In this document: piece after piece, positions 10,592 through 64,000 of the stretch
How positions within the stretch are numbered: position 1 is the stretch's first letter
Layout of the letters: every line of letters starts with the position of its first letter
Origin: Escherichia phage FL08
Sequence record: PP400785
Strand: one strand, 5' to 3'
DNA: 64,000 nt
The notes under the pieces: model-generated
What the model saw: the letters and a program-made list of their open reading frames with translations, nothing else
Database searches by the model: none
What the model was told of the DNA's origin: nothing
Made by a program: the position numbers and the translations under genes

Positions 10592-11242
10592 TTATTTTTC
10601 CTTTCTTATGAAGTTTTCTATCATATGTCTATAGCAGATATTAGGATAACCTGCCTTGACAGCTATTTTATTAAATTTTGTGCGCTTAGGTCTATTATTA
10701 TAAACCCATAATTCATAAAGCGCATCATAACTATTCCATATTTCTCCTCGCCTAGGATTTGGTAAACCATATCGAGGTGAATTTTTACCGCTAAATCTTC
10801 CTTTTCGGGCTTTACTCATATTAGCCTTGGCTTCATCGGATATAATTTTACCTTTATGAGCTAGACGCATTTTGGCTTTAGTTTCTTCTGGGGTCTTTTT
10901 GCCTTTAATCCATGACGGCTTGCCATATCTAGGATTATTTTCACCCGAGAAAAGAACAGAGTTTTGGATTTTAAGGGTTTCTATTAATCTACTTGTTAAT
11001 TTAACACCTTTATTATATCGCATTAAATTTACAGCATAATGCAATCCTCTCACATCTGGATATATTTTAGTTAATAATCTATGAGCTATAAAATGCTCAC
11101 GCGCAGTTAACTCAACAAGATTGTTTTTGTCATCTGCTCCTCCTATACATCTAGGAATTATATGATGGCGTTCTTTATATCCGCCAAGATGCCGGCATTT
11201 AGCTTTTGTAATTAAAGCCGAGTAAATTTTTTGGTAATTCAC
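10592..11242 (-). CDS. HNH homing endonuclease (Mob-like)
   Basis: N-terminal HHIIPRCIGG...NLV.LT..EH..AH HNH motif; C-terminal NUMOD-like repeats (NPRYGK, SPRYGL). Confidence 0.8.
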   Translation of the reverse strand: MNYQKIYSALITKAKCRHLGGYKERHHIIPRCIGGADDKNNLVELTAREHFIAHRLLTKIYPDVRGLHYAVNLMRYNKGVKLTSRLIETLKIQNSVLFSGENNPRYGKPSWIKGKKTPEETKAKMRLAHKGKIISDEAKANMSKARKGRFSGKNSPRYGLPNPRRGEIWNSYDALYELWVYNNRPKRTKFNKIAVKAGYPNICYRHMIENFIRKEK

Positions 11243-11313
11243 ATATATCCTTTCAATTCATGGGTTAGTAGATTAATTATACAATAAATATATAAAAGCA
11301 ATAAGGAGGACAT

Positions 11314-11514
11314 ATGGTACAAAAATTAATGGCACTTGTTGATGCCATAAAAGGTAATAAAAAACGTATAGCTTTTACTATTTCTGCTATGGTAGGAATT
11401 TTACTCTGGAACTTTATTTTATCACCCATTGCAATTGCACATGGTATTAATATTCCAGTAGTTACTCTTGATACATTCGTAGATTTAGCATTTGCTTTAG
11501 TTGGGTTAATTTAA
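11314..11514 (+). CDS. small hydrophobic (membrane) protein, 66 aa
   Basis: Plus-strand ORF preceded by consensus Shine-Dalgarno (AAGGAGG, 5-nt spacer); two predicted TM segments. Confidence 0.5.
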   Translation: MVQKLMALVDAIKGNKKRIAFTISAMVGILLWNFILSPIAIAHGINIPVVTLDTFVDLAFALVGLI

Positions 11515-12539
11515 ATCTTAGCATATTTAGATAACCGCATTTTAGCCATCAACCCCTGTGCAATATTATTTTTCATATATTCCATAATTTGTTCAGGGGT
11601 TGCACCTTCCTTTCTAATCATATCATTAACATCTTTTGATTTCCAGGGAGATTTATCCCAAAACATAACCCTTTCTCCTGCATCAACTAATTTAGTCATT
11701 CGCTTGATAGTGTCAGGGTGACGAGGTTCATTATCTAAAACCCATACTCGTCTATCTTTAAATGGAACAACTTCTAGGTCTAATTGACCACCCGTAATAG
11801 CTATACCATTTTCAATAAAAAGCGAATCTATAGGTCCTTCTAGAACATATACATCACCGTCTTTAACTCGTTCGACTCCATATATTTTTGTTGCCTCAGG
11901 ATAAGCTTTAATGGTGATATATTTTTGAGGAGCATCTTTCTTTAATGCACGTCCTTGAAAAGACTCAGCTTTTCCATTAGCATTATAAATTGGAATAACA
12001 AGACGAGGCTCAGGTATTTCCTTTTTATATGTTCCCGGTGCTATGCTATTAACTAATTTAGGCCATTCGGTTGTAAACCAAAGATATTTCCATTTATCCT
12101 TTGGAATACAACGAGCTTTTACATATTTTATAATTGGATGGTCTTCCGCCAGTTTATCTAATCTAACACATGACGGAAGAGATTTAATTATTTTCTTCTC
12201 AGGTTGTTTAGGAAGTTCTTTAGGTTTTTCTACTGGACGACTTTTACCTTTTTCTTTTCTTATTTCAAAAATATACTCACGATATAAATCGGGTTCAAAC
12301 TCCTTTAAATATATTCCGATTGGTGCATGATAGTTACAGTTATAACAATGAATATTTCCTTCATTATTATCGCCATAATACCATCCACGGGCTTTATTTT
12401 GGTCGGTTTTTGAATCTCCACAAACAGGGCATCTAAACCGCAATTTAAAAGTTGAACTATTATTTACTTGTGTGAATTTAGGTAAATGAGCTAATGCACG
12501 GTATGCAAACTCATTATCAATCCAAGGTATTGATGACAT
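11511..12539 (-). CDS. 61: DNA primase (gp61)
   Basis: 342 aa; N-terminal zinc ribbon CPVCGDS...CYNC; TOPRIM-like core; T4 gp61 size. Confidence 0.9.
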   Translation of the reverse strand: MSSIPWIDNEFAYRALAHLPKFTQVNNSSTFKLRFRCPVCGDSKTDQNKARGWYYGDNNEGNIHCYNCNYHAPIGIYLKEFEPDLYREYIFEIRKEKGKSRPVEKPKELPKQPEKKIIKSLPSCVRLDKLAEDHPIIKYVKARCIPKDKWKYLWFTTEWPKLVNSIAPGTYKKEIPEPRLVIPIYNANGKAESFQGRALKKDAPQKYITIKAYPEATKIYGVERVKDGDVYVLEGPIDSLFIENGIAITGGQLDLEVVPFKDRRVWVLDNEPRHPDTIKRMTKLVDAGERVMFWDKSPWKSKDVNDMIRKEGATPEQIMEYMKNNIAQGLMAKMRLSKYAKI

Positions 12540-12541
12540 TT

Positions 12542-12706
12542 TTACTCTTCTTTTTCTTTAGATTCCTCTTTTTTCTTTTTAGGAATCTGTTCAGGACCTT
12601 TATTTACTACAGCGCCTGACGTTGTTCCAGTAGAGATATTTTCAGGATTACCACCTGAATCTCCAGCTACCATATCTTCTTTGATAAATTCTTTATATGT
12701 TTTCAT
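12542..12706 (-). CDS. small protein (54 aa) with capsid-targeting-sequence-like N-terminus
   Basis: Sub-threshold ORF exactly filling the 61-upstream gap; SD AGAGG; N-terminus MKTYKEFIKE resembles T4 CTS MKTYQEFIAE; Lys/Glu-rich tail. Confidence 0.4.
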   Translation of the reverse strand: MKTYKEFIKEDMVAGDSGGNPENISTGTTSGAVVNKGPEQIPKKKKEESKEKEE

Positions 12707-12707
12707 A

Positions 12708-13064
12708 TTAACCTCTATTCATAAAAGCATTAAAAATTTGGTCATCAATAGATGGTGCAGTAATATTTTCTGCATCATTTAGCAAATCATTAATTTCATC
12801 AGATAGCATAACACATGTACCTTTATTTCCTGTAATTGTTACTGCGCAATTACGAACGTTTTCTTTATTAAATTTTAGGTTAATATTTTCGTAATGAAAA
12901 TCCTTTAATGCTGAATATATTTTTAAAATAAAATTATCTTTTACTACAATAAACCCAACCTCACTATTAAAACGTGGTTCATGGAAACTGTAATAAACCT
13001 TTTCATCTATAAAATCGTATGAAATTTTTTCCATTTTTAAATATGAAAATTCAGAACTATACAT
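12708..13064 (-). CDS. hypothetical protein (118 aa)
   Basis: ORF in 61-41 interval. Confidence 0.45.
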   Translation of the reverse strand: MYSSEFSYLKMEKISYDFIDEKVYYSFHEPRFNSEVGFIVVKDNFILKIYSALKDFHYENINLKFNKENVRNCAVTITGNKGTCVMLSDEINDLLNDAENITAPSIDDQIFNAFMNRG

Positions 13065-13076
13065 ATTAACCTCTAA

Positions 13077-13370
13077 TTACTCACCTACCACTTCAGCGAT
13101 AATATTTTTATTATTAAAGTTTTTATCGCAATACAGAACATAATTATACTGCATTACACCACCAGACTTAAGCTGTTTTTGCACTTCGGCTTTCATTTCA
13201 GGACGATCACGCTCAACGATATTCATAATATCCGCTTCAATTTGAGTTTCAACTTCAGTCTGATCCGCAGTCATAGACCATTCACACAAATCTTTATCAT
13301 ATCCTGCCATAGCAGGCTGAGCAGCACAAGAAGCCAAAGCAAAAATTGTAGCAAAGATAAATTTTTTCAT
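13077..13370 (-). CDS. hypothetical secreted/periplasmic protein (97 aa)
   Basis: N-terminal signal peptide MKKFIFATIFALASCAAQPAMA. Confidence 0.5.
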   Translation of the reverse strand: MKKFIFATIFALASCAAQPAMAGYDKDLCEWSMTADQTEVETQIEADIMNIVERDRPEMKAEVQKQLKSGGVMQYNYVLYCDKNFNNKNIIAEVVGE

Positions 13371-13430
13371 GATAATCTCCTCAGTAGTTTATGTTTATAT
13401 AGTATCTCAATTTCCAATAAAAGTAAACAG

Positions 13431-13730: not shown

Positions 13731-13872
13731 TGAAAGCTTTAACTAATGCTTTATTAACTTCAGCATATTGAGTAGTAGCCCATTGAACGTCATCTTTCAT
13801 CATTGTGATTTCTTTAGTAAACATGCTTTCATTCTTAAACCACCCCATAAAAACTACCTTTACCAATTCCAT
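13690..13872 (-). CDS. possible Dmd-like antitoxin (60 aa)
   Basis: 60-aa ORF immediately downstream of gene 41, the position and size of T4 dmd (61.5); sequence identity not verified. Confidence 0.4.
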   Translation of the reverse strand: MELVKVVFMGWFKNESMFTKEITMMKDDVQWATTQYAEVNKALVKAFIDDKKVCEVDCRG

Positions 13873-15730: not shown

Positions 15731-16886
15731 TTAACTGCTCGAGGTCAGTTTCTAAATCAGATGCTGATTTACTTTTACTTTCTGGAGATTTAAATTTTTC
15801 AACCTTTGAGTTAATCAATTCATCAACTTCAGCTTCAACAATTTCATTGCTATCAATAGCACCTAACTGATAAGCACGTTTAATAGCATCTCGGAATGGT
15901 TGATGCTTAAATAAAGGACCCCAGAATGTAGTGCAGTTGGTATCTTTTGCACGCCAAGATTTTTCTTCGCGAATCATCTCACCGGTTTCTTCATCAAGAA
16001 ATTCACGGGCATACCAGCCATTTTTAGGTTTTACCACGAATCCTAATTCTAGAGCCATATCTAACAATCCAGAATAAGGATCGATACCACCGTCAAATTT
16101 AACATCAATAAAGAATTTACTTTTTTCTTTAACGGTACGAGATTTTTCTACATTTAGAACAAATTGATACCCCTGAAGATCAGAACCATCTTTAATCTGG
16201 CGTTTACCGATAATGAATACGGTATCAGCCGAATACATTACGCCTGTACCACCTGTCATCACGGTTTTACTAAACATTTCAATTGTTTCAATTGTATGGT
16301 TAACCGCAACACATGGAATATTTTTAATGCTAAAATAAGGAGTAACAATACGGAATAATGACTTCAGTGATTTAGCACGAGTCATATCTGCCACAGATTT
16401 TTCATTCAAGGCATCTTCCGTTTCTTTCTTAGAAGCCATATTACCGATTGAGTCGATGAATACAATAACCTTTTCACCACGCTCAATAGCTTCAAGCTGA
16501 TTCACCATGTCAATTTTCAGTTGTTCAACTGACTGGATTGGTGTATGAATTACTCGTTCCGGGTCAACTCCCATGGATCGCAAATAAGCTGGAGTAATAC
16601 CAAATTCGCTATCATAGAATAGACAAACCGCGTCAGGATATTTGTTCAAATATGCCGCAACCATAGTCAAAGACATATTTGATTTAAAGTGTTTAGAAGG
16701 CCCTGCGAAAATAGTTAAACCAGACTGCATGCCGCCATCAATCGCACCAGAAATAGCAATATTAAGCATTGGGATTTTTGTACGGATTACATCCTTTTCA
16801 TTAAAGAATTTAGATGTAGTCAGTTCAGCAGTCATTTTAGAAGTGGAAGCTTTAATCAAACGGGATTTTAAATCTGCAATAGACAT
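15705..16886 (-). CDS. uvsX: UvsX recombinase (RecA/Rad51 family)
   Basis: 393 aa; Walker A GPSKHFKS; long stretches recognisable as T4 UvsX. Confidence 0.9.
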   Translation of the reverse strand: MSIADLKSRLIKASTSKMTAELTTSKFFNEKDVIRTKIPMLNIAISGAIDGGMQSGLTIFAGPSKHFKSNMSLTMVAAYLNKYPDAVCLFYDSEFGITPAYLRSMGVDPERVIHTPIQSVEQLKIDMVNQLEAIERGEKVIVFIDSIGNMASKKETEDALNEKSVADMTRAKSLKSLFRIVTPYFSIKNIPCVAVNHTIETIEMFSKTVMTGGTGVMYSADTVFIIGKRQIKDGSDLQGYQFVLNVEKSRTVKEKSKFFIDVKFDGGIDPYSGLLDMALELGFVVKPKNGWYAREFLDEETGEMIREEKSWRAKDTNCTTFWGPLFKHQPFRDAIKRAYQLGAIDSNEIVEAEVDELINSKVEKFKSPESKSKSASDLETDLEQLSDMEEFNE

Positions 16887-16963
16887 TCATTTTTTCCATA
16901 GGCATCATTATATTTTCCTCACTGGTTAAAGATAGAGTAATTATAACACAATAAATTTAGGCA

Positions 16964-17812
16964 TTAATCAACTGCTATCGGATGAATAGCATTAAACTTA
17001 TGAAATGCTTCTGATTTTTCTTTACGCGAAACACACATGCGAAGAACCTTTAATGGCTCGTCTTCTTCACCCAACGATTTTCGTTTTTCAATATTAGAAG
17101 TTTTCCAACGAGCTTGTTCTGGAAACTCTCTATTGATTTGCTCAAGCGCTCTATTATGTTTAGAATTACTACGAATTGAACTGCACCCGCCAGGAGCTTG
17201 TGCTTTTCCAGATACAACCAGATATTTGAACAAGGCCAAATGCGGATAACCTTGATTAATTAAATTGAGAAATGCATACATATCTTCGCATAAATCAATT
17301 TTTCCATACCCAATTTGTTCTGTCGTAAGTTTTCCGAGGTCATACCATGTATTCGTGAATCCATATGAATTTTCACGATAATTACCCCAAGATGAAGTAA
17401 TTTTAAAAATAGGTAGACGAGCATGACCATGATAATACCCGCAATCCATGGCATCCTCAACATATTGAATCAATTCATAGAACTGTTCACGAGTCAATTG
17501 ATTGACTTTATCTACACAACGACGATCATCTCTTTTTCGCATTGAACTCATACGAATAGTAGTATCATCGTCAATCATCCAGATTCGTTGACCTGCATAC
17601 ATATCAGTAATTGCTTTACGAGTACCGGCAATTCCATTTACATCATCAGGAATAGTTATAATTTTAGCTCTAGACCCATAGGCATCATAATAAGCTTTTT
17701 CTTCGTGTTCACGTACTACAATATGTGGTTCATAATCAGTCGGAAACATATCAAGGGCAGAAACTGCCCCTACACGTTGATAGCTTGGAATTACGAATTG
17801 AATCATTTCCAC
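16964..17812 (-). CDS. glycosyltransferase with DxD motif at the bgt locus (possible T2/T6-type beta-glucosyl-HMC-alpha-glucosyltransferase)
   Basis: 282 aa; WMIDDDT DxD motif; lies between uvsX and 42 where T4 has 351-aa bgt, but does not resemble T4 Bgt. Confidence 0.5.
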   Translation of the reverse strand: MEMIQFVIPSYQRVGAVSALDMFPTDYEPHIVVREHEEKAYYDAYGSRAKIITIPDDVNGIAGTRKAITDMYAGQRIWMIDDDTTIRMSSMRKRDDRRCVDKVNQLTREQFYELIQYVEDAMDCGYYHGHARLPIFKITSSWGNYRENSYGFTNTWYDLGKLTTEQIGYGKIDLCEDMYAFLNLINQGYPHLALFKYLVVSGKAQAPGGCSSIRSNSKHNRALEQINREFPEQARWKTSNIEKRKSLGEEDEPLKVLRMCVSRKEKSEAFHKFNAIHPIAVD

Positions 17813-18543
17813 TCACCGTTATAATCTTTTTTCACAATATGAGTTTCGCCAGTATTCCACCAATGATCAACCAAGTAAAAATGACGAGAATATACATGAA
17901 GACTTCCAACATTCCATATAATAGAACCTGCTTTATACTGACGAGTTGAATCGCCTGCATTCAAATCAGATACTAATTTATCTAATACGTATTTTTGCCA
18001 TGCATAATCATTACGGAATCCGAAGACCACGTCATTTGAGCGCATGCTTACTACTGCATTGACTTTCTTATCACGAATCAGGTACTGTACTGTATTCGTA
18101 CACATGAAATCTGACATACCATCTTTATTGTAGTCAAATTGCATGGATGGACGAGTATAAATCATGATACCACGTCGAGAATCAGGATTTTGACCAAGTT
18201 CAGCTAAACACATATCATACTGGGCATAGTTATCTTCTGACCAGATAGCCCAGCCATAATTCGAGTTAATTTCACCTTTAGAAGATGCTACTTGTTGCCA
18301 AATCTTCGGTGTTTCACCCGGAATATCTTTAACAAACAGACTTTGAGACTTGTACCATTCAAGTTCACGCTGAATGTATTCATCATTAAGAGCGCCAAAA
18401 ATAAACGGTTCATCTGCTACAAATGATGCGCCAATAATTTCAATAGTTTTAACGCCAGTTTTATCAACTACGAAATCTTTTTCTTTTAATGCAAGCCCCA
18501 AATGAAGACGGATTTCTTCAACTGTCATAGAGTCACTAATCAT
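17803..18543 (-). CDS. 42: dCMP hydroxymethylase (gp42)
   Basis: 246 aa (T4 gp42 size); thymidylate-synthase-like sequence. Confidence 0.9.
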   Translation of the reverse strand: MISDSMTVEEIRLHLGLALKEKDFVVDKTGVKTIEIIGASFVADEPFIFGALNDEYIQRELEWYKSQSLFVKDIPGETPKIWQQVASSKGEINSNYGWAIWSEDNYAQYDMCLAELGQNPDSRRGIMIYTRPSMQFDYNKDGMSDFMCTNTVQYLIRDKKVNAVVSMRSNDVVFGFRNDYAWQKYVLDKLVSDLNAGDSTRQYKAGSIIWNVGSLHVYSRHFYLVDHWWNTGETHIVKKDYNGEWK

Positions 18544-26041: not shown

Positions 26042-26092
26042 AATTCCTCCGTATAAATATGTTTATCACTCGCTGTATCAAAAGGATATGTT

Positions 26093-26809
26093 ATGAATTA
26101 TAAACTAATTTATGAAAAGTTAATCTCTAATGCTAAATCTCGAAAACTTGATTGCTATACTGAATCTCATCACATTATACCACGCTGTTTAAATGGCAGC
26201 GATGATGCTTCAAACTTAGTAGATTTAACACCAGAAGAGCACTATGTAGCTCATCAACTTTTAGTAAAAATTTATCCTTCTGAACCAAAATTAGTCTATG
26301 CTGCTAACATGATGACAGTTTCCACGAAATACGCTAAACGCAACAATAAAACTTTCGGTTGGATTCGTCGTAAACTCTGGGAAATAGAAAAGAATAAAGA
26401 ATTCTCCCAAGAGACACGAAAGAAAATGTCTGATGCAGTAGCTAATAAAGCAAGACTAACTTGTCCTCATTGCGGTAAGTCTGGATTAAGCGGGAATATG
26501 AATCGATGGCATTTTGATAACTGCCCGAATCACCCTAATCCTAAAGTTAGACCACCGATGTCTAAAGAACACAGAAATAATATCTCAAACGGGCTTAAAG
26601 CAATCATTCTTGAAGAAACATCCTGCGAATTCTGCGGAATGATAGGCAAGAAATGCGTTATCGCAGCGCATAGAAATTTCTGCAAGAAAAATCCAAATGG
26701 ACGCAAGAAAACTGAAAAGACTGGTACTTGCGTCCATTGTGGTAAAGTTACCACTTTCGGAAATTTATCAAGGTGGCATAATGATAACTGTAAATATAAA
26801 CCTAGCTAA
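26093..26809 (+). CDS. HNH homing endonuclease (Mob-like) with C-terminal Cys-rich zinc-finger repeats
   Basis: Plus strand; N-terminal ESHHIIPRCLNGSDD...NLV.LT.EEH..AH HNH motif shared with the two minus-strand HNH genes; CPHCG / CEFCG / CVHCG repeats. Confidence 0.8.
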   Translation: MNYKLIYEKLISNAKSRKLDCYTESHHIIPRCLNGSDDASNLVDLTPEEHYVAHQLLVKIYPSEPKLVYAANMMTVSTKYAKRNNKTFGWIRRKLWEIEKNKEFSQETRKKMSDAVANKARLTCPHCGKSGLSGNMNRWHFDNCPNHPNPKVRPPMSKEHRNNISNGLKAIILEETSCEFCGMIGKKCVIAAHRNFCKKNPNGRKKTEKTGTCVHCGKVTTFGNLSRWHNDNCKYKPS

Positions 26810-28490
26810 TCTTAGCTAAACTAAATCTACCAACTTTTTCCATTTGAATATGCTGACCATATTCTTGTGGGTCATGGTCTTTATGCGAAATTATGAAGAA
26901 GTTGGTATCCTTCAAACCATCTAAAATTTTAGCTACATTTTTAATACCTTCAGCATCAAATGCACCGTCATACACTTCATCAAGAAATAAACAACTTATT
27001 TTAACACCTGAAACTTTTTCAGCAATATCACGCCAAGTAAATAAAAGAGCAATATCAATTCGTGCTTTTTCGCCTTGACTGAATGAAGCATAACTAAAAT
27101 CTTCGCGACCGCGGGATTTAATTGTCTCATTAAATTCTTCATCTAATGTAAACACATAATCCGCTTCCATTATTTTAAGATAATGGTTAATCTGCTTATT
27201 AAATAATGGAATGTACTTTTTAATAATAGCACCTTTAATACCAGAATCTTTGAGCATATCAGTCAAAATTCCTCGGTGGTATTTTTCCATTACCAAATTA
27301 GTTTTTGTCTTAACAATTTTATCAAGTTCTTCTTGAAGCAGTGCTATTTCATCAGCATGGTCAATAAACTCAGAAGATGCTTTTTCTATAGCTGCTTTAA
27401 CTTTTTTGGCTTTATCTACCGTCGTGATTAGAGATTGCTTTTTATTGCGAATATCATTTGCCAACGACTGTTGGGTTTTAATATTATCTCGGTATTCATC
27501 AACAAGAACTTTTAAATTATCACGATGTGTTGAAAGCTGTTCAAACGAATGAGTACATTCAGAAACTTTATCTTTAATTTTAGAAACAACTTTATCACCG
27601 GAACTTAATTGTGACAAACAGGTTGGACATAATCCACCTTCGTGATACATATTAATGACTTTATTATACGAGTCAATTTTCGATTTAATTAAAAATGCTT
27701 CTTGGCCGATTTTATTAAATGCATCAGTCGGGTCTTCATCCAAAACAATATTAACTAATCTTTCATTAGCTTCTTCTATTTCCGATTTTAGCGTTCTAGC
27801 TTCTTTTGCCAAATCATCGTACATATTTTGCAGACGAGTAAGGTTGTCACCCGTTAATTTTTTCTGGCGTTCAACGTTATCATTATATATTTTAATTTGT
27901 TGGATAATACTATCTCTTTTAACATCAAGCACTTGGTTTTGTGAATTTAATTCACGTATTAGCGCTTTATTAAGCTTATCCATTTCAGCTAATGTTCCTA
28001 CCTCAAGCAGGTCTTCCACAAGCTTTCTTCGTGCAGGGGTCGACAAACCCATGAAAGGGGTATACCCTGCTGTACCAAGGACAACAATCTGCTTGAAACT
28101 GGCATATGACATTCCGATAAGCTGTTCAAATTCTGCTTGGAAATCTTTACTGCTGGCAGATTCATTAAGACGTGTACCGTTAACGGTGATTTCGAAAACG
28201 TTTGGTTTTTGTCCTCTTTTGATATAGTACTTTTTCTCATCATATTCCATCCACAGTTCAACTAAAAGTTCTTTCTTATTTGTGCTGTTTATTAATTGAC
28301 CTTTCTTTACATCACGGAATGGCTTGCCAAAAAGCCCAAATGTGATGGCTTCTAACATAGTAGACTTACCACCGCCATTTCGTCCAGTAATAAGAGTTTT
28401 TTGAACCTTATCTAATTGAATGTCAATAGGATTTCCACCTACTGACATTATATTTTGATACCTAACTCGGTTTAGTTTAAAATTCTTCAC
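26802..28490 (-). CDS. 46: recombination endonuclease subunit gp46 (Rad50/SbcC-like)
   Basis: 562 aa; Walker A GRNGGGKST, central coiled coil with CPTC zinc hook, C-terminal signature/Walker B LFLDE. Confidence 0.9.
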   Translation of the reverse strand: MKNFKLNRVRYQNIMSVGGNPIDIQLDKVQKTLITGRNGGGKSTMLEAITFGLFGKPFRDVKKGQLINSTNKKELLVELWMEYDEKKYYIKRGQKPNVFEITVNGTRLNESASSKDFQAEFEQLIGMSYASFKQIVVLGTAGYTPFMGLSTPARRKLVEDLLEVGTLAEMDKLNKALIRELNSQNQVLDVKRDSIIQQIKIYNDNVERQKKLTGDNLTRLQNMYDDLAKEARTLKSEIEEANERLVNIVLDEDPTDAFNKIGQEAFLIKSKIDSYNKVINMYHEGGLCPTCLSQLSSGDKVVSKIKDKVSECTHSFEQLSTHRDNLKVLVDEYRDNIKTQQSLANDIRNKKQSLITTVDKAKKVKAAIEKASSEFIDHADEIALLQEELDKIVKTKTNLVMEKYHRGILTDMLKDSGIKGAIIKKYIPLFNKQINHYLKIMEADYVFTLDEEFNETIKSRGREDFSYASFSQGEKARIDIALLFTWRDIAEKVSGVKISCLFLDEVYDGAFDAEGIKNVAKILDGLKDTNFFIISHKDHDPQEYGQHIQMEKVGRFSLAKIS

Positions 28491-28937: not shown

Positions 28938-29953
28938 TGTGTTGCCTCTACATATAACTGATTTGCATATTGAATAAGTGCTTCACGGTCAGAATCAGTG
29001 ATGTCTGGAATTGCATTAATGTATTCTTCCATCAACGTCTGAAGCGATTGAACTTCAACTTCTTCACTATCATCTGACCCGACAGAGTTATCAATCTTTG
29101 ACACAACTCGTAATGAATGCACAACTTTTTCTAGTTCAGATTCGAACTTCGTCAGATTTTTGTCTACTTCAGTTACTATAACACGTACTGATAGATTTGT
29201 AAAATCTTTATAGTCAATTTTTCCTTTAAATGGATAATGAATTCTACGATGCCAGGTAGTGTTGTTTGGAATAAATTCCATTCGTTCTGTTTCTGTATCA
29301 AACATCCAGAACCCACGAGGGTCATTCTCGTCACCTGCAGTTAGTGTCCATGGTGTCCCAATATACTTGACGTTTGCAGCCTCAGAAATAGTATGGAAGT
29401 GACCAGACCACACTTCTTTATAAGTCTTAAGGAAATCAGGTTCAAGACCATGAGATTTCATTCCTTTATAAAAATAAAATCCGTTCAGTTCCCAGTGACC
29501 AACACAAAAAGAAGCAGATGAAGTTTTGATATGCTCAAGAATTTCACCAGTATTTTCTTCACACATCCAAGGAATTAAATCAATCAAACATCCATCAAAA
29601 TCTACTGTAGTAGGCTTATCATACACTTTAACATTAGGATATTTAGCCAAAAGCTCAGTAGAGGCATTTGGATGCATTACATTTTTGTAGTGGAGATCGT
29701 GATTTCCTACAATAGTATGTAATGTGATTCCAGCGTCATCAAGCATTTGAACTATTTCACGGGCAAACTCCATAGTTTTATGCGTGATTGCTTTTCGCAC
29801 ATCAAAAATATCACCATATTGAATCCATACAGTAATTCCATTTTTCTTAGAATATTCTATCGCTTGCTTAATTCCATCAATTTGAATACCGCGAATCCAC
29901 TCATCATCAGCTTTAACGCCTAAATGCCAATCACCCAAGTTTAGTATTTTCAT
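28934..29953 (-). CDS. 47: recombination endonuclease subunit gp47 (Mre11/SbcD-like)
   Basis: 339 aa (T4 gp47 size); calcineurin-like phosphoesterase motifs GDWHLG, GDIFD, GNHD. Confidence 0.9.
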   Translation of the reverse strand: MKILNLGDWHLGVKADDEWIRGIQIDGIKQAIEYSKKNGITVWIQYGDIFDVRKAITHKTMEFAREIVQMLDDAGITLHTIVGNHDLHYKNVMHPNASTELLAKYPNVKVYDKPTTVDFDGCLIDLIPWMCEENTGEILEHIKTSSASFCVGHWELNGFYFYKGMKSHGLEPDFLKTYKEVWSGHFHTISEAANVKYIGTPWTLTAGDENDPRGFWMFDTETERMEFIPNNTTWHRRIHYPFKGKIDYKDFTNLSVRVIVTEVDKNLTKFESELEKVVHSLRVVSKIDNSVGSDDSEEVEVQSLQTLMEEYINAIPDITDSDREALIQYANQLYVEATQ

Positions 29954-30554
29954 GGTGTCTTTTCCATCCTAATTTAGCTGCTTTTGAAACCAGTTCTTTA
30001 ATTTTTCCTTTTGTCCATTCAGGACCAGGAGGTTCATGACATAACATTTGCTTAACTCCGTTATTATACCATTTTTTACCTTTATTATGTGATGAAGCTT
30101 TAAATTTATTTGACCTTCCTTTTACATAACCTTCTGGAATATAAGGCAAAAAGGCAGATTTTCCTGTTAATGGATCATGTGAATGTATATTTCCTTTACA
30201 ATTATGAGAACCATATAATGGATGATTTTGTCCTTTATTATCTCTTCCAAACGAACCTTTTGGAGCAGCATATGACATATTAAAGAATAATGGATTTTTA
30301 ACTGCATCATGCAATCGTTGATAATATAACTCGCATTTAATAGCTTCTTCACGCGTATCAAATTCAGCTAAAATGCATGAATCAAATAAGTGAGGATTAT
30401 CTGAAAGCTCTTTATTATAAATTTTCTTATACTTTTTAGATAAAACTGAACCATGATATCCAGCTAAATGCCTATCTAAAGACGTAGATCCAATATAAAA
30501 AGGAGGAAGTTTATCTCCACTATATATTGTTAAATAAGTTATATATTTTTTCAT
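29931..30554 (-). CDS. GIY-YIG homing endonuclease (Seg-like)
   Basis: N-terminal YITYLTIY...FYIGST GIY-YIG motif; C-terminal NUMOD-like GxxHPLYG repeats; inserted between 47 and a-gt. Confidence 0.65.
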   Translation of the reverse strand: MKKYITYLTIYSGDKLPPFYIGSTSLDRHLAGYHGSVLSKKYKKIYNKELSDNPHLFDSCILAEFDTREEAIKCELYYQRLHDAVKNPLFFNMSYAAPKGSFGRDNKGQNHPLYGSHNCKGNIHSHDPLTGKSAFLPYIPEGYVKGRSNKFKASSHNKGKKWYNNGVKQMLCHEPPGPEWTKGKIKELVSKAAKLGWKRHHENTKLG

Positions 30555-30730: not shown

Positions 30731-31933
30731 TTATTTTGTAATAATGTCAAACTGTTCTTTAAAGCAGAAGCTTGAATCTTGATGTTGATACAAAAATTCA
30801 TACGCTTTTTCTCGCTCACGGTCATAAAGAGCTCGGTCAGATGACAGTTCTTTAATACGTTCAAATGTTGATTCCATATCATTTTCATCAAACCAAATGA
30901 TACCACTATCATGCGAGGTCAAAGGAGTATTATCAACACGGAATTTTAAATTTTCGCCAGTAGATTTCCAAAATACCGGAATTGTTCCACATGCACCAAG
31001 CTCGAGGTGAGTATATTCTAAAGAACGTTGTAGATATTTTTTATCCAACTTACTCAACTGATAACCAAATCCGGATTTACTCATGCGTTCAAGCATTTCG
31101 CTATTTACATAACGGTCGAGAATTTGCGTCGGCAAATTAGGAGCAATTTTAATTTGGTCTACTTGATGAAGACGATAATACTCGTATGGAATTCCTTTTT
31201 CTTTAATAGGAATGAACGCTGGAGAACGTTCCAGACCTTCCATAATAGTACTTAGTCCTGCAGGTTTAAGATGTTTTTCGTGAAAATCAAACATCTGATA
31301 AAAACCTTTCCATGTAGTCGTACGACCAATCCAACGGTTGATATTCATGTTAATTTCAGAAACATCTTTCCAGTAGGTTGATCGAACCTTCGCAATATCC
31401 ATAGGAGGCTGAAAGTTGTATACGGTCGGTGCTTCTTCAATATCATCAAACAGAGAAACTGTTTCTGGATACCATTCTTTCATCAGAACTTTATTAAAAT
31501 CGCCATTATCAGAATGACTAAAAATAACATCAGCTCGACGAACAGTTTCTTCTAATCCCAAATTTCGACGCAAAGAAAGAGAAGAATGGTCATGCTGATA
31601 AACTACAACACGAACCGAAGGTTTAATGTTATCAATAATTTTTTTATAGTTATTAATAGTGTCTTCTTCAACTGAAGTAGCAGGAACTGAATTGATAATT
31701 AGAATATCACAATCATTTACCAGCTTAAGTGTTTTATCGTATTCTTTTGCCAATAAAACCGGAATTGAAAATGATTTATAATCATGTGCACAGTTACGAG
31801 TAAATGATTTATCTTTAGCATAAACCAAAGTTACTTCATGACCATTTTTAATAAACCAATCACGCTGCTCAAGAGAAAATTTAGTTACACCACAACCTTC
31901 AAGACCTCGAGCCATAAAAATACATACTTTCAT
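30731..31933 (-). CDS. agt: DNA alpha-glucosyltransferase
   Basis: 400 aa; N-terminus ICIFMARGLEGCGVTKFSLEQRDWFIKNGHEVTLVYAKDKSF recognisable as T4 a-gt. Confidence 0.9.
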   Translation of the reverse strand: MKVCIFMARGLEGCGVTKFSLEQRDWFIKNGHEVTLVYAKDKSFTRNCAHDYKSFSIPVLLAKEYDKTLKLVNDCDILIINSVPATSVEEDTINNYKKIIDNIKPSVRVVVYQHDHSSLSLRRNLGLEETVRRADVIFSHSDNGDFNKVLMKEWYPETVSLFDDIEEAPTVYNFQPPMDIAKVRSTYWKDVSEINMNINRWIGRTTTWKGFYQMFDFHEKHLKPAGLSTIMEGLERSPAFIPIKEKGIPYEYYRLHQVDQIKIAPNLPTQILDRYVNSEMLERMSKSGFGYQLSKLDKKYLQRSLEYTHLELGACGTIPVFWKSTGENLKFRVDNTPLTSHDSGIIWFDENDMESTFERIKELSSDRALYDREREKAYEFLYQHQDSSFCFKEQFDIITK

Positions 31934-31983
31934 TTAATATCCTCTTTGTTTTGGTTTATTTTACCAAAAATTTATAAAGCAAT

Positions 31984-35971: not shown

Positions 35972-36442
35972 TTAATCATGTTTCCACACCCAATCGGTAT
36001 TTGACCAAAGTCGCTGATTATTTGATCCTCGCCACAGCTTTTTAGTCGGAAGATTTTTCTCATACTTCCCATCAATAATAACATCAACATATTTAAGCAT
36101 TTCTAGTTGTTTAATATCTTCAAACTTATATCCTGTCCACAACCAAATGCTTTTATTGGGATAAAGATTTTTTACTGTTTGAACAATGCAATGAATAACA
36201 TCTCGGTTATCAGGATAGAGAGGGTCTCCTCCAGTTATAGTTAATCCTTCTATATAATCATTATTCAAACATTCAATTAATTGTTCTAGTGTTTCGCCAG
36301 TGAATGGAATACCATTTCTAGCATTCCATGTTGATTTATTATAACACCCTTCACATTTATGCAAACAACCTGTAACGAAAAGAACGACCCTGCAACCAGG
36401 GCCATTCACAAAATCGCAAGGATAAAATCTATCATAATTCAT
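35972..36442 (-). CDS. nrdG: anaerobic ribonucleotide reductase activase NrdG (radical SAM)
   Basis: 156 aa; CLHKCEGC CxxxCxxC radical-SAM cluster motif. Confidence 0.85.
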   Translation of the reverse strand: MNYDRFYPCDFVNGPGCRVVLFVTGCLHKCEGCYNKSTWNARNGIPFTGETLEQLIECLNNDYIEGLTITGGDPLYPDNRDVIHCIVQTVKNLYPNKSIWLWTGYKFEDIKQLEMLKYVDVIIDGKYEKNLPTKKLWRGSNNQRLWSNTDWVWKHD

Positions 36443-38256: not shown

Positions 38257-39068
38257 AATTCTAATTTATCCTTTTGAAATTCTTCGTCTAAATATGGGTT
38301 CCAACCCATTTTAAACCTTTTGATGAAATTATCAATTCTAAATTTCGGTAAATTTAACTCCGCAAAAATAGATGATTTACTTTTAAAATCTGGACCTAAA
38401 TAATCATATAAAATTTCTGCGTATTTTAACCATAATATATAAGTACCAGATTTAATTGCTCTAGGAGTTTTCCAAGGTTTTACGCCGTACATCGGATTTC
38501 CACTTCCTTTATGCCTGATAGAAGATGAAATTCCAATTTTAATTTTAGCTTCCTTTGTGTGCGAAAATCCATGATGTGGATTTTCTTTCCAGTATTTTTT
38601 AGAAGCTTCTGATATTTTCTTTCTGGCTAAATTAGTATGATGCTTTCCATAAAATCCATGATTTTTACCTTTATTACGATTTCTTTTAATCATGGTTATT
38701 GATTGCTTTTCTCTAGTTTCTTTAGAAGGAGAAACACCGTACGTTGTAAATTGACCATTAGCATATGCTAAATTAAAATACTCTTTATTCCATATATCTT
38801 TTTCTATATTCTTTTGAAATTCAGCTTCAATGCTAGTTATTTGTTCATCTCCGACTAATTGAAAATATAATATTTCAACTTTCGGTGTTTCTTTCAACAG
38901 AGCTTTTTGAAATTCGGAAGATGACGAAGACGAATAATAAAATTTACCATTTTTATCAATAATATTCGTTCCGTCAAAAGTGCAATTGGTTTTACTTCCA
39001 ATATAATAATATGGCGGGGTTTTAGCATTAATTCTACTAATAAATGATAGTTTATATACTACATTCAT
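38247..39068 (-). CDS. GIY-YIG homing endonuclease (Seg-like), free-standing upstream of nrdD
   Basis: N-terminal VYKLSFISRINAKTPPYYYIGSKTN GIY-YIG motif; NUMOD-like repeats (NHGFYGKHHT, GSGNPMYG). Confidence 0.65.
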   Translation of the reverse strand: MNVVYKLSFISRINAKTPPYYYIGSKTNCTFDGTNIIDKNGKFYYSSSSSSEFQKALLKETPKVEILYFQLVGDEQITSIEAEFQKNIEKDIWNKEYFNLAYANGQFTTYGVSPSKETREKQSITMIKRNRNKGKNHGFYGKHHTNLARKKISEASKKYWKENPHHGFSHTKEAKIKIGISSSIRHKGSGNPMYGVKPWKTPRAIKSGTYILWLKYAEILYDYLGPDFKSKSSIFAELNLPKFRIDNFIKRFKMGWNPYLDEEFQKDKLELCL

Positions 39069-46057: not shown

Positions 46058-46777
46058 TTAGGATTCTTCTAAATGTCTTTTCTGAAAAGTTGATACCATA
46101 CTACGATACGGTTCATTTGGATATCCGTGTTTTATAGCTTCCTTTGTAAATTTTCTCCATCCATATTTAGTTTCTTTCCAAAGCTCGAATAATTCATCTT
46201 CATACTGCCATATAGTTAAATGAGAACGCTTTGCAGCTTTAATTCCATTAATATGCTTTTCTTTTACTGCAGGATTGCTTAGTTTCTTTTTAATAATATT
46301 ACTAACTTTTCTAACAAAAACTGGGTCCTTATATCGTTGCGAAGTTTTTATTGAAGTGTTTAATTTAGCTTCCGGCGTGGATGTAACCTCTTTCATCTTT
46401 TTCTTCATATGCTGTATATGATTAGGATTTTTCCATAAATTTATAGAATGCTTTTTGCATTTTATCCTAGTTTCATCTGCAACCTTTCCTCCTTCACCCC
46501 CGTATGACAGGTTAACACAGTTTTTTCCATATTTCAATTTACCTGCCATGATATATAATATTTCAGCTTGTACCATTTTATCATAATTATCAAAAACTTC
46601 TAAAACCGTTTTTGATAATATGTGGTCATTTGACACTTTTACACGTTCTATATAATTTCCACTACCAACATACGAATCATTGATGTTATTAGTTATATGT
46701 CGACCATAATAGTATTTCTTAATACCTGTCTTTAAATTTAATATTTCAGTTTTATAGATAGTAAAATATTTTTTCAT
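46058..46777 (-). CDS. GIY-YIG homing endonuclease (Seg-like)
   Basis: N-terminal IYKTEILNLKTGIKKYYYGRH GIY-YIG motif; basic C-terminal DNA-binding region. Confidence 0.65.
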   Translation of the reverse strand: MKKYFTIYKTEILNLKTGIKKYYYGRHITNNINDSYVGSGNYIERVKVSNDHILSKTVLEVFDNYDKMVQAEILYIMAGKLKYGKNCVNLSYGGEGGKVADETRIKCKKHSINLWKNPNHIQHMKKKMKEVTSTPEAKLNTSIKTSQRYKDPVFVRKVSNIIKKKLSNPAVKEKHINGIKAAKRSHLTIWQYEDELFELWKETKYGWRKFTKEAIKHGYPNEPYRSMVSTFQKRHLEES

Positions 46778-47855: not shown

Positions 47856-48866
47856 TCATTTATAATAACTTCGGTGGTTTTCAAGATAGACCTTCTCAAG
47901 GAAGTCATCCCAGAAACCCATGTCTACTTTTTGCTGCATACCATTCTTAGAAGCTTCAGTAGATGCTGCTTCTACTTGATCGACCACATCTTCCAAAAAC
48001 TCTTGAACTGTTTTAAATGGATGTTTACCCAACTTCACGTCGAGAATAAATGGAGCATCTTGAAGTGGATAGACTAAGTCACCAGTTTTGTAAATTTCCA
48101 ATAGTTGGAGTCCACCACGACAAGCATGACTCAGAGCTTTCCAGTCAATACCTTCGTTGGCTTCGGCCTTACGAGCGCGTTCACCGTATTCAGCATCTAA
48201 TTTGTTCAGTGACTGCTTAAGCTCAATAAGAGAAAGCGTTGTCTGATATTTACGACCCAACACAGTGTAAAACGTCTGTGGGCCTGTTTTCTCATGATTA
48301 TGAAACACCCATTCACAAAATTCGTTTTCTGGAAGACGATGCTTAATATCTTCAACTTTAGTGCGACGTTGCTTAATAGAACCATCTTCTTGGTAATCAA
48401 CCCATTGCTCAGGGATTTGATTAACTACTTTCAATACATCACGTAATGCAGCCAAACGAGAACCCTTGACACCGTATTTAGAAGCTTGCTTGCGGACATA
48501 TCCTAAATATGATTTCATGTTAGTCGTATAAAAACGAGAACGGTTGTCTTGAATAAACTTCCACACATCAGGCAAATCAGATTTAACCACTAGCTCAGGT
48601 GGAGTGTGAAGCATATCTAATGCTACAGTTTCACCATCTGCTGCTAATTTAAAGAAATATTTAAGACTGTATAGTTCATGGTCAATATCATCTTTAGTGT
48701 TTTTAGATGATGTGTTGTTAGTGTTTTTACTCATGTGCTCTTTGACATTTCCGATAAGAATATCGCGAGCAGGAGGAACAAAAATTTCTTTAAAATCTAC
48801 ATCAGATTCTGGGGTAGAAGTTCCATAAAGATGACTACCAAAATAAGACTTAACTACAGTTTTCAT
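47856..48866 (-). CDS. Pol-beta-superfamily nucleotidyltransferase-like protein
   Basis: N-terminal G-S-x10-D-x-D signature (GSHLYGTSTPESDVD); start taken at MKTVVK (track ORF extends to 48902). Confidence 0.5.
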   Translation of the reverse strand: MKTVVKSYFGSHLYGTSTPESDVDFKEIFVPPARDILIGNVKEHMSKNTNNTSSKNTKDDIDHELYSLKYFFKLAADGETVALDMLHTPPELVVKSDLPDVWKFIQDNRSRFYTTNMKSYLGYVRKQASKYGVKGSRLAALRDVLKVVNQIPEQWVDYQEDGSIKQRRTKVEDIKHRLPENEFCEWVFHNHEKTGPQTFYTVLGRKYQTTLSLIELKQSLNKLDAEYGERARKAEANEGIDWKALSHACRGGLQLLEIYKTGDLVYPLQDAPFILDVKLGKHPFKTVQEFLEDVVDQVEAASTEASKNGMQQKVDMGFWDDFLEKVYLENHRSYYK

Positions 48867-49629
48867 TATTAGACCTTTCATAATCTTCATTAAATTGTAC
48901 AATCAATCGATGATAATTAGATTTTGGATATCCTAATTTACTTATATAAGTTCCGAATGACCCACGTTTAGGTCTATTTAATTTAATCCATAACTTATAA
49001 AGTAAGTCATAGTCTTGCCAATGTTTACCAGTTCTTTGTCTAATTTTAGATGAATTTGATTGTTTCTTTTTAGTTTCAAAATTATTCAAAGATTTTTTGA
49101 CTGCAGCAGAGTGTTTTTCTTTAACTCCCGGTCGTTTAAAAGCAGCTTTCACCCCTTTAGATATTTTTTCTTTAACTTCCGGTTTGTTTTGTGCTTCTAA
49201 CTGGGATTCTGAAATTTTAGCCCTTATTTCAGGAAGACTTAATGTTATCGAACGTTTTTCTCTGTATTCATTAGACTTCCACATTTCTTTCATTGTATTA
49301 GAATGTATTTTTGAAAATTTTTCTCTAACTAACTGATATCCTCTTGAAGTTAATTTGAGATTTCTTCCTAAAGAATCTTCTCCAAAATTATAAAATGACC
49401 ACCATGCATAAATTAATCCAGGCGAATTATAATGAATTTTAGCTAAAAGCCAATGGGCTATAAAATGCTCTCTAGCTGTTAATAAAACTAGATTATCAGA
49501 ATCATCATTACCACCAATACAAGATGGAATAATATGATGCTTTTCCGTATAAAAATTTAATTTAGATTTATCTAATTTTCTGAGTTTTCCTTTCTTAATT
49601 AAATTATTATATACTTTAGTATAATTCAT
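48850..49629 (-). CDS. HNH homing endonuclease (Mob-like; mobD position)
   Basis: N-terminal EKHHIIPSCIGGNDD...NLV.LTAREHFIAH HNH motif; Lys-rich C-terminal repeats. Confidence 0.8.
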   Translation of the reverse strand: MNYTKVYNNLIKKGKLRKLDKSKLNFYTEKHHIIPSCIGGNDDSDNLVLLTAREHFIAHWLLAKIHYNSPGLIYAWWSFYNFGEDSLGRNLKLTSRGYQLVREKFSKIHSNTMKEMWKSNEYREKRSITLSLPEIRAKISESQLEAQNKPEVKEKISKGVKAAFKRPGVKEKHSAAVKKSLNNFETKKKQSNSSKIRQRTGKHWQDYDLLYKLWIKLNRPKRGSFGTYISKLGYPKSNYHRLIVQFNEDYERSNNENCS

Positions 49630-62684: not shown

Positions 62685-62691
62685 AAGAATG

Positions 62692-63165
62692 TTATTTGAT
62701 TTGTTTAGCAGACCAAATGCGATCTTTAATAATTTTTTGGATGTCTTCAACATACTCTAGGTCATGAGCATGTGGATTATCTTTGAAACTATGAGCTCGC
62801 GCAAGTTTCTGGCCTTCGGTCTTAATTATCAAAAGTTCTTTAAGAATTGCTTCATACCTAGAGATAATTCCTTTAGCAATATTTTTTTCTTGTGCTGCTT
62901 TAGGGTCAGCCTTAGGAGCAGGTTTACCTGAAGCCTTTGCAAAAGCAGCTCCAGTAGCAACTAAACTTTTCCAGGCCATACTAACTGCATTTCCCGTAAA
63001 TCCTTCCGCTTTCATGTCGCGTGCGAACTGGAATCGCGATTCATCAGAAGCATCTTTATAAGAATATTTACCCGCTGCAATGGCTGCTTTTGCGACAGCT
63101 TGAATTTCGGTGCTAGATGCTTCATTTAACACCGCTTCATTTAAAAATTGAGTATATGATTTCAT
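62692..63165 (-). CDS. internal-protein-like protein with CTS-like N-terminus
   Basis: 157 aa; N-terminus MKSYTQFLNE resembles CTS; Lys/Ala-rich; late promoter TATAAATA upstream. Confidence 0.55.
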   Translation of the reverse strand: MKSYTQFLNEAVLNEASSTEIQAVAKAAIAAGKYSYKDASDESRFQFARDMKAEGFTGNAVSMAWKSLVATGAAFAKASGKPAPKADPKAAQEKNIAKGIISRYEAILKELLIIKTEGQKLARAHSFKDNPHAHDLEYVEDIQKIIKDRIWSAKQIK

Positions 63166-63201
63166 CTTATTTCCTGTTTTAATTCGTGGTTTTAATATAC
63201 T

Positions 63202-63209
63202 TATTTATA
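63202..63209 (-). promoter_or_regulatory. late promoter (TATAAATA) for IP-like gene
   Basis: minus-strand TATAAATA ~35 nt upstream of ATG, directly after terminator hairpin. Confidence 0.55.
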
Positions 63210-63216
63210 CTAAAAA

Positions 63217-63240
63217 GCCCCAACCTTTCGGTCGGGGCTA
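63217..63240 (-). terminator. terminator hairpin, copy 2 of direct repeat
   Basis: agccccaacc-tttc-ggtcggggct with U-run on minus transcript. Confidence 0.55.
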
Positions 63241-63287
63241 AGCCTTGCGGCAACCTTGTCGGGGTTCCACCTGCTAAGGCAAGTGTT

Positions 63288-63382
63288 TGTACGAAACGCC
63301 GGGATTCGAACCCGGTTATCAAGCAGTTGACGCTACTCAATATTTTTAAAAGGCCATATCTCGACCATATCCGAACGTTCCG
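63288..63382 (-). ncRNA. tRNA-like / small stable RNA candidate (unresolved)
   Basis: Minus-strand T-arm CCGGG-TTCGAAT-CCCGG and 7-nt acceptor-like 3' segment pairing with CGGAACG ~90 nt upstream; could not fold a canonical cloverleaf by hand. Confidence 0.3.
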
Positions 63383-63555
63383 TCAAAAACGCTACTCGGC
63401 TTACGGCAAAGATATTTCCTCGAATCGATAATTCGGTGCGCCGTTTCTGCTGTGATGTAAGGGGACATTAACAAAACATAAAGATTTATTAATGCCAGTC
63501 CTTAAACAGGGAACATCAGTCCGACGACTTGCCGGTAGCGACCCGGCTTCTTGTC

Positions 63556-63631
63556 TGGTCGAGGCAGTAGGGATCGAACCTACGACCCAGGACTTAGAAG
63601 GTCCTTGCTCTTCCTTCTGAGCTATGCCTCG
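63556..63631 (-). tRNA. tRNA-Arg (anticodon TCT)
   Basis: 76-nt cloverleaf on minus strand: 7-bp acceptor CGAGGCA/TGCCTCG, anticodon loop CTTCTAA, T-loop GGTTCGATCC, encoded CCA. Confidence 0.85.
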
Positions 63632-63634
63632 TAG

Positions 63635-64000
63635 TTAAAATTTCATTTTTCGACCTTTAAACCATCCTTCTGGAATTGGGTCAGTTTTCTTAATACGTTT
63701 AGAAACTTTTTCATCTAATGAATGAATCCACATCATACCAAATTGGGAATTCTTTTCACCTTTCTGGTGATTATTTTTAGCGTGAGATTCTTTCATTTTA
63801 TTAATAGTTTCAGGAGTATGGGTCTTACCCAAGAAAGATTTAGTATTTAAAAATTTCTCTCTATACTTAGGATTATCCCAAAGCTGTTTAAACCTTTCTG
63901 AACCCATTTTACGATATTTTTCTTTAAGGTCTGGGTCGTTCTCAAATCTGGTTTTAAAAGCGGCAGCTCCTTTTAAGGAAGCTTCTTTCTTTTTATCCAA
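63635..64000 (-). CDS. GIY-YIG (Seg-like) homing endonuclease, C-terminal part; segB-like by position
   Basis: Truncated by window edge; NUMOD-like repeats (GKTHTPETINKMKESH, GEKNSQFGMMWIH); stops 3 nt from tRNA-Arg. Confidence 0.5.
   Translation of the reverse strand: MDKKKEASLKGAAAFKTRFENDPDLKEKYRKMGSERFKQLWDNPKYREKFLNTKSFLGKTHTPETINKMKESHAKNNHQKGEKNSQFGMMWIHSLDEKVSKRIKKTDPIPEGWFKGRKMKF

Follow-up and report, generated by a model that had tools for sequence, protein, structure and literature searches.

Seven Probable Free-Standing Homing Endonuclease Genes of the Mob and Seg Families in a T4-like Segment of Escherichia Phage FL08

1. The Endonuclease Genes and Their Junctions

The window considered here is a stretch of 64,000 nucleotides (nt) from Escherichia phage FL08 (sequence record PP400785). 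Its interval 10592-64000 carries seven open reading frames (ORFs) that are, with high probability, free-standing homing endonuclease genes of the Mob (HNH) and Seg (GIY-YIG) families, i.e., selfish cassettes lodged at the junctions of conserved genes. Both endonuclease families have been known since the early 1990s. An earlier reading of the letters of this DNA, made with a list of its ORFs and no database searches (the sequence-only reading), had described three HNH and four GIY-YIG genes here. All seven ORFs are present, six on the minus strand and one on the plus strand, and the PHROG, blastp, motif and fold results given below agree with this description. Each gene is designated by its first position, and protein lengths are in amino acids (aa):

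10592..11242, minus strand: w10592, free-standing Mob-type HNH gene, 216 aa, GTG start, between gene 56 and gene 61
26093..26809, plus strand: w26093, free-standing Mob-type HNH gene, 238 aa, between 45.2 and 46 and antisense to both
29931..30554, minus strand: w29931, free-standing GIY-YIG gene, 207 aa, exactly at the gene 47 ATG, between 47 and 47.1/a-gt
38247..39068, minus strand: w38247, free-standing SegG-like GIY-YIG gene, 273 aa, between nrdD and 49, overlapping both by a few bases
46058..46777, minus strand: w46058, free-standing Seg-family GIY-YIG gene, 239 aa, between nrdC.10 and nrdC.9
48850..49629, minus strand: w48850, mobD, 99.6% protein identity to T4 MobD
63635..64000, minus strand: w63635, C-terminal 121 codons of segB, the catalytic N-terminal half lying beyond the window end
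63556..63631, minus strand: tRNA-Arg (TCT), found by ARAGORN and Rfam, adjoining segB as in the T4 annotation

Several of the seven genes overlap the stop or start codons of their neighbours by a few bases. The neighbours that had been named for them (56/61, 47/a-gt, nrdD/49 and tRNA-Arg) are borne out by colinearity with T4 and by ARAGORN.

The window is colinear with the T4 reference genome from motB to segB, with 94.6% identity over the 56 kilobases (kb) that can be aligned, and the part from 11303 to 19348 is T2-like (97.8% identity). Three long stretches of the window were compared by megablast with 50,697 phage records, about 1,000 of which match; for the long flanking stretches, a query cover of at least 80% is reached in about 420-450 records, mostly at 95-99% identity, and nearly all of these are Tequatrovirus phages of Escherichia, Shigella or Yersinia. 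Since no identical record was found among the phage records matched, the window is a mosaic relative of T4. Its gene order and identities mark it as a Tequatrovirus (T4-like) genome segment that reaches from motB to segB.

2. Placement in the Mob and Seg Families

The three HNH proteins (w10592, w26093 and w48850) match T4 MobB, MobC, MobD and MobE in blastp searches, with E values down to 1e-34, and PHROG 655, which is labelled 'homing endonuclease', with E values of 1e-57 to 1e-69. When they are aligned with T4 MobB, MobC and MobE, the residues H26, H27, N41, H50 and H54 are invariant. The N-terminal 60 aa of the three proteins had been described as nearly identical; this is an overstatement, as the pairwise identities are 58-67%. 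A profile built from one alignment (A1) matched generic HNH domains only, and weakly.

The family likeness of w10592 extends to PHROG 655 (E 1.3e-59), to the Pfam domain NUMOD3 (E 8e-7), to T4 MobE (62% identity over 82 aa, E 9e-32) and to MobD (E 1e-33 in blastp). Its C-terminal ~45 residues have 48% identity to the C-terminal end of w46058, a GIY-YIG protein (44 aa, E 6e-8), and also resemble T4 SegA and MobD; that DNA-binding modules are common to both catalytic families is already known. The antisense gene w26093 matches PHROG 655 at E 1.1e-68, and in blastp it matches T4 MobB (E 7e-29). It carries three I-TevIII-like CxxC...H...C zinc-finger repeats, and its C-terminus matches PHROG 27406, PHROG 12324 and T4 I-TevIII.

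The GIY-YIG motif is present in w29931, w38247 and w46058: across nine aligned proteins, Y20, G22 and N92 do not vary and the Glu position is conserved, the Arg equivalent to R27 of I-TevI being the one position that could not be placed confidently. In its catalytic half, w38247 has 40% identity to T4 SegG (128 aa, E 7e-26), and the protein also matches PHROG 7504 (E 1e-33) and Pfam NUMOD3 (E 5e-8). For w46058, blastp gives matches to T4 SegB, SegF, SegE, SegA, SegC and SegD at E 5e-12 to 1e-5, and PHROG 314 is matched at E 1.4e-30. The fragment w63635, which holds the non-catalytic half only, has no Pfam or PHROG endonuclease match; it is 83% identical to residues 101-221 of T4 SegB. A match to I-TevI obtained with a profile from a further alignment (A2) was discounted because I-TevI itself is in A2.

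The weakest case for family membership is w29931. Its Pfam GIY-YIG score is 21.4 bits against a cut-off of 22.6 (E 3e-4), and its PHROG matches are PHROG 314 (E 5e-18) and, as the best, PHROG 10820 (E 1e-94). The YIG motif is kept without exception in 43 homologues, as are Glu75 and Asn92. An AlphaFold model has pLDDT values of 89-98 over residues 1-100, and its top three Foldseek matches in the PDB are the catalytic domain of I-TevI (1LN0 and 1MK0; probability 1.00, target TM 0.60, E 0.018), the next match having an E value of 2.5. A phmmer search of w29931 against the PDB sequences gave no match. With moderate strength, the predicted model argues for the GIY-YIG alpha/beta fold. PHROG 10820 (phrog_10820) is labelled 'HNH endonuclease', and the label has been copied in several GenBank records. 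It appears to name the wrong catalytic family, as the motif, the Pfam match and the predicted fold are those of GIY-YIG.

The sequence-only reading had proposed a comparison with the T4 Mob and Seg proteins as a check, and both blastp and alignment do place the ORFs in the two families. It had also named, as the result that would speak against it, a failure of profile searches to place these ORFs among the HNH or GIY-YIG families; no such failure occurred, because profile, pairwise, motif and fold tests together assign the ORFs to Mob and Seg.

3. Number and Density

The seven genes amount to 4680 nt, or 8.8% of the interval 10592-64000, so the high density that had been noticed is real. The homologous interval of T4 also holds seven (segF, segA, mobB, mobC, I-TevII, mobD and segB), which make up 8.9%, and the density is therefore unexceptional for this group of phages. 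The whole T4 genome has 15 endonuclease genes, which take up 11% of its coding potential (PMC2988022). In the examined part of the interval in T2, an intact endonuclease gene was not found, only a split Mob-like remnant. The density in the window is thus typical of T4 and much above that of T2, and an endonuclease load equal to that of T4 over the interval would not fit the older picture in which T4 stands alone. Of their endonuclease genes in this interval, the window and T4 have just mobD and segB in common; five T4 genes are missing and five others are present.

An eighth homing-endonuclease-like ORF, or a remnant of one, was not found when 15 T4 and seven window endonuclease proteins were compared by phmmer with the 923 ORFs of a six-frame screen that took in every ORF of at least 30 aa. 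The segments of the window that are absent from T4 (1740-2083, 12753-13075, 33501-33760, 40517-40903, 53165-53531, 57756-58196 and 62687-63206) were considered as candidates and set aside, as they hold small ORFs without endonuclease features. A scan of NCBIfam gave sub-threshold IscB and group-I-intron-endonuclease matches only. There is no group I intron in the window, where Rfam at gathering thresholds finds the tRNA-Arg only. An intron-encoded origin of the I-Tev type was rejected on this Rfam result and on the state of nrdD, which is one ORF of 605 codons.

4. Cassette Insertions and Their Distribution

The five genes that T4 lacks are precise cassette insertions in comparison with T4 and T2, at junctions that are empty in T4; in the comparison with T2, mobD, like the five, is a precise insertion or a replacement. 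The cassettes preserve the reading frames and the start contexts of their neighbours. Thus, w29931 is a 594-bp (base pair) insertion with the repeat TTTTCAT on both sides, by which it takes over the start context of gene 47, and w38247 takes over that of nrdD. Relative to both T4 and T2, w26093 is a 786-bp insertion. At the position of w10592, T4 and T2 carry dam; compared with RB14, which is without both dam and the HNH gene, w10592 is a clean ~640-bp insertion with similar ribosome-binding-site sequences at its edges. The window has no dam methyltransferase gene, and the HNH cassette holds the position between 56 and 61 (10606-11302).

Two of the cassettes are preceded by predicted promoters:

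11276..11301, minus strand: middle-promoter-like site upstream of w10592, a TGCTTTTA box plus TATAAT, read from the sequence
26052..26059, plus strand: predicted T4-type late promoter TATAAATA, 34 nt upstream of the w26093 ATG

The equivalent of the former site in phage fPS-90 is annotated 'predicted middle promoter'. The latter is followed by an AGGA ribosome-binding site ahead of w26093, and it is the sole plus-strand copy of TATAAATA in the 64 kb; the sequence as such is under-represented in the window, with six copies found against 11.3 expected from shuffles.

The comparison of presence and absence in related phages, which had also been proposed as a check, gives the sporadic pattern expected of such genes. 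Out of roughly 450-570 records of related phages, each of the five non-T4 genes occurs in 48-66, in most cases with 96-100% identity: w10592 in 55 phage records, w26093 in 59, w29931 in 65, w38247 in 48 and w46058 in 66. The last is the gene of T6, RB14, RB51 and RB32 (RB32ORF093c). MobD is encoded in 46 records, and its gene is absent from T2, which has other DNA at that site. For segB, the allele of the window is found at 95% identity or more in 55 records and the T4/T6 allele, at 80-90%, in 72 more, which makes 127 in total. Among the matches listed, every endonuclease gene has the same neighbours, and many are annotated 'homing endonuclease'. As judged from deposited phage genomes, in which every one of the seven genes occurs at 96-100% identity, the identification is correct but ordinary and already known.

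An identity of at least 99% across records is attained in 52 of 66 cases (w46058), in 49 of 68 and in all 46 (mobD), whereas no record reaches 99% over a 20-kb stretch of the backbone. This difference suggests a recent spread of the endonuclease genes. Two cassettes, moreover, also occur in other genera, where they are much closer to the window in sequence than their flanks are. In the Klebsiella phage KEN22 (Jiaodavirus), a homologue of w10592 that is 90.5% identical sits at the same junction, the adjoining gene 61 being only 67% identical; in phage 55 (Mosigvirus), the homologue of w38247 is 96.8% identical and gene 49 is 82% identical. Going by these identities, the two cassettes have crossed genus boundaries.

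5. Divergent Tracts Beside the Cassettes

A divergent tract is linked to three of the six complete genes, and in each case it lies on one side only:

10072..10590, minus strand: gene 56 (dCTPase) allele, candidate target or co-converted gene, linked to w10592
26822..27021, minus strand: gene 46 3' end, divergent tract, candidate target or co-conversion tract, adjoining w26093
37998..38197, minus strand: nrdD 5' end, divergent tract, candidate target or co-conversion tract, linked to w38247

The nucleotide identity of gene 56 is 72-75% to T4, T2 and RB14 and 95% to fPS-90, which is HNH-positive; next to it, gene 61 shows 98% identity to each of these four phages. Gene 46 is 70-83% identical to T4 and T2 over its last ~200 bp, and the identity rises to 96-99% beyond these 200 bp. 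This 3' allele of gene 46 is found at 95% identity or more in 59 records, a number equal to that for w26093, and it directly adjoins w26093 wherever both appear among the matches listed. In nrdD, the first ~200 bp are 72-74% identical to T4 and T2, both of which are without w38247, as against 94-96% further into the gene; in two genomes that carry w38247, the tract is 96-97% identical. Since the changes in the tracts hit amino acids as well as silent sites, the tracts resemble imported alleles more than a handful of immunity mutations.

More generally, of the 100-bp bins within 300 bp of the edges of presence/absence differences, 23% fall below 85% identity to T4, as against 7.7% (a 3.6-fold enrichment; Fisher p 3e-4, to be read loosely, as neighbouring bins depend on each other). 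Divergent patches also occur away from endonuclease genes: nrdC.3 (about 41700-42600) is 61-81% identical to T4 and has no endonuclease gene nearby.

6. How the Cassettes May Home

The distribution of these genes would be explained by homing. During co-infection with a relative that lacks the cassette, the enzyme would break or nick the naive genome, site-specifically, in or near the neighbouring gene. The recombination-dependent repair of the phage would then take the donor as template and copy the endonuclease gene along with DNA that flanks it. The donor itself would be spared, either through sequence differences in its target region or through disruption of the site by the insertion. The enzymatic activity, the target positions, the gene conversion and the biased inheritance in this scheme are inferred by analogy with SegA to SegC, SegE to SegG and MobE. 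Free-standing endonucleases of T4 cut neighbouring genes and cause marker exclusion (PMC2988022), and endonuclease genes sit at the boundaries of allele exchange between phages (PMC10448857). Swapped sets of genes and co-converted flanks are a pattern that is already well described.

It is possible, and we put it forward tentatively, that the five non-T4 genes encode uncharacterised specificities, with the tracts pointing to cuts in the last ~200 bp of gene 46 by w26093, in the first ~200 bp of nrdD by w38247 and in gene 56 by w10592. If this were true for gene 56, an essential gene would be contested from opposite sides, by SegF in T4 and by an HNH enzyme here, and reciprocal marker exclusion would be predicted in crosses with T4.

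Several observations weigh against the homing reading or its details. None of the five non-T4 genes has a cleavage site or an activity on record, and the activity of MobD is given as 'ND' (PMC2988022). The Pfam HNH and GIY-YIG domain scores lie under the curated cut-offs, those for the three HNH proteins being 16.9-18.8 bits against 21.4. The enrichment of divergent bins comes from one genome pair only, with bins that are not independent of each other, and the linkage between the gene 46 allele and w26093 is a matter of equal counts and listed rows, not of a record-by-record comparison. Finally, w29931, w46058 and mobD have no adjacent divergent tract in comparison with T4 or T2. One explanation is that, for these three, the target may be the junction itself; another is that the compared genomes may already carry resistant alleles.

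7. Alternative Explanations

Homing does not preclude a benefit to the phage, and some of the nucleases could be kept mainly for this, whether through the exclusion of competitor alleles or through the segmental amplification of anti-defence loci, in which case they would have been co-opted and would not be purely selfish. Amplification of tRNA and anti-defence genes driven by SegB has been reported in T6 (PMC13096335); in the window, too, segB adjoins tRNA-Arg, and the intact ORFs vary little among many isolates. However, there is no tandem amplification around segB in the window, although the window ends inside this gene, and the sequence holds nothing that separates benefit from selfish spread. 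Moreover, the patchy distribution, together with a set that differs from that of T4 at homologous positions, implies that none of the genes is needed by the lineage. Retention mainly for the benefit of the phage is unlikely on balance. A related question is whether some of the seven are inactive relics that persist by linkage. T4 itself holds such genes in its defective mobA and its truncated I-TevIII, T2 has its split remnant between 46 and 46.1, and the activity of MobD has never been demonstrated (PMC2988022). Against this, the six complete ORFs are full-length with their catalytic residues in place, and the very high identity among records, along with the passage of two genes across genus boundaries, speaks for recent active spread rather than decay, which makes persistence as relics rather improbable.

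The family assignment itself could be doubted if the ORFs were chance frames, or if they were non-mobile nucleases or DNA-binding proteins mislabelled on the strength of weak motif likeness. Two of the proteins are without any Pfam match and the Pfam scores of others are under the gathering thresholds, as would then be expected. The PHROG and pairwise matches to T4 Seg and Mob are nevertheless strong, the motifs are conserved, the fold of I-TevI is matched, and the genes are polymorphic for presence or absence at fixed junctions. The PHROG, blastp and fold results refute such a mislabelling, and we regard it as extremely improbable. Free-standing homing endonuclease genes of the Mob and Seg families, therefore, remain the explanation that we prefer.

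8. Relation to Known Systems and Significance

The three HNH proteins share with the T4 Mob family (MobA to MobE, of which MobE has been characterised) the N-terminal module MNY...HHIIPR...GG.DD..NLV.LT..EH..AH, a modular C-terminal DNA-binding region and an intergenic position between conserved early genes. Unlike the T4 genes, w10592 and w26093 sit at junctions that are empty in T4 (56/61 and 45.2/46), and w26093 is antisense, has a predicted late promoter and carries zinc fingers in place of the MobD/SegA-like C-terminal module. With the T4 Seg family (SegA to SegG, the nearest members being SegG of the gene 32 locus and SegB of the tRNA cluster), the window proteins have in common a GIY-YIG module with NUMOD3-type or helix-turn-helix-like C-terminal regions, as well as insertion beside a conserved gene and a sporadic distribution; w63635, a SegB allele, occupies the tRNA-Arg junction at which SegB lies in T4. 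The differences are that w38247 sits at nrdD/49 whereas SegG sits at 32/59, that w29931 is only remotely Seg-like (27% identity to SegG) with a PHROG of its own, and that w46058 is a T6/RB32-type gene at nrdC.9/nrdC.10 that is absent from T4. The intron endonucleases I-TevI, I-TevII and I-TevIII belong to the same two catalytic families, and the zinc-finger module is common to I-TevIII and w26093, but the window has no intron and its nrdD is uninterrupted.

The closest parallel to the situation at gene 56 is the marker exclusion between T4 and T2 that involves SegF (Belle et al. 2002, as cited in PMC2988022). There, as here, an endonuclease gene flanks gene 56, which varies strongly among the T-even phages. 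The window, however, has no segF downstream of gene 56 and carries an unrelated HNH gene upstream of it.

The window is a textbook example of how fast the endonuclease genes of T4-type phages turn over, with the same number and share of DNA as in T4 and a largely different set at different junctions. The genes appear to drag along alleles of essential genes (56, 46 and nrdD), even across genus boundaries. The three linked tracts are concrete places in which to seek the cleavage sites of uncharacterised enzymes, although the practical value of this is modest. The residual interest lies in these uncharacterised specificities and in the possible contest for gene 56 by two unrelated endonucleases in different lineages.

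9. Endonuclease Sites of T4 and Other Differences from T4 and T2

The sites of the five T4 endonuclease genes that are missing from the window are either empty or replaced:

10041..10072, no strand: empty segF site at the soc/gene 56 junction; T4 15610-16270 without counterpart
16875..17820, minus strand: T4 segA and beta-gt replaced by a T2-type glucosyltransferase gene, with no endonuclease gene
31924..31949, no strand: empty mobB site; T4 37817-38679 without counterpart
36422..36442, no strand: empty mobC site at the nrdG/nrdD junction; T4 42916-43518 without counterpart
37718..37721, no strand: intron-less nrdD at the site of the T4 nrdD intron and I-TevII; T4 44814-45850 without counterpart

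The 5' part of nrdG, beside the empty mobC site, is only 57-83% identical to T4. The gene equivalent to 16875-17820 is annotated in T2 as a beta-glucosyl-HMC-alpha-glucosyltransferase; in the window, a 282-aa ORF at 16964-17812 sits at the position of this T2 gene, and the T4-type beta-glucosyltransferase is absent. Because a T2-type glucosyltransferase ORF takes the place of the T4-type enzyme, DNA modification in this phage is probably T2/T6-like.

The T2 remnant mentioned above lies at T2 20913-21774, between 46 and 46.1, where T2_055 and T2_056 (annotated as hypothetical) match Mob/Seg C-terminal and HNH regions at E 1e-10 to 1e-6. From these matches, the two probably represent a split, defunct Mob-like endonuclease gene. 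The 46/46.1 junction is without an endonuclease gene in both T4 and the window.

Smaller differences from T4 are scattered over the rest of the window. T4 nrdC.4 has no counterpart (42617-42633), T4 49.3 is replaced by unrelated small ORFs (40517-40903), and T4 ipIII and denV have no counterpart either. At tk.2/tk.3, 367 bp (53165-53531) are inserted in comparison with T4. The insertion holds an ORF of ~80 aa with several Cys pairs (CEKCKWP...C..C), and T2 carries two small hypothetical genes there.

Two ORFs of 157 aa on the minus strand, at 57755-58228 and 62692-63165, lie in DNA that is absent from T4. They start with MKTYQEFITEA and MKSYTQFLNEA, respectively, and these starts resemble the capsid-targeting N-terminus of T4 internal proteins; the former ORF is 31% identical to T4 IPII. 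Both are probably alternative internal-protein genes, to judge from these likenesses, and both are preceded by TATAAATA. On the minus strand, TATAAATA is located at 10034-10041, 52193-52200, 58831-58851 and 63202-63209, and every copy is just upstream of a plausible late gene (soc, the lysozyme gene e and an internal-protein-like ORF).

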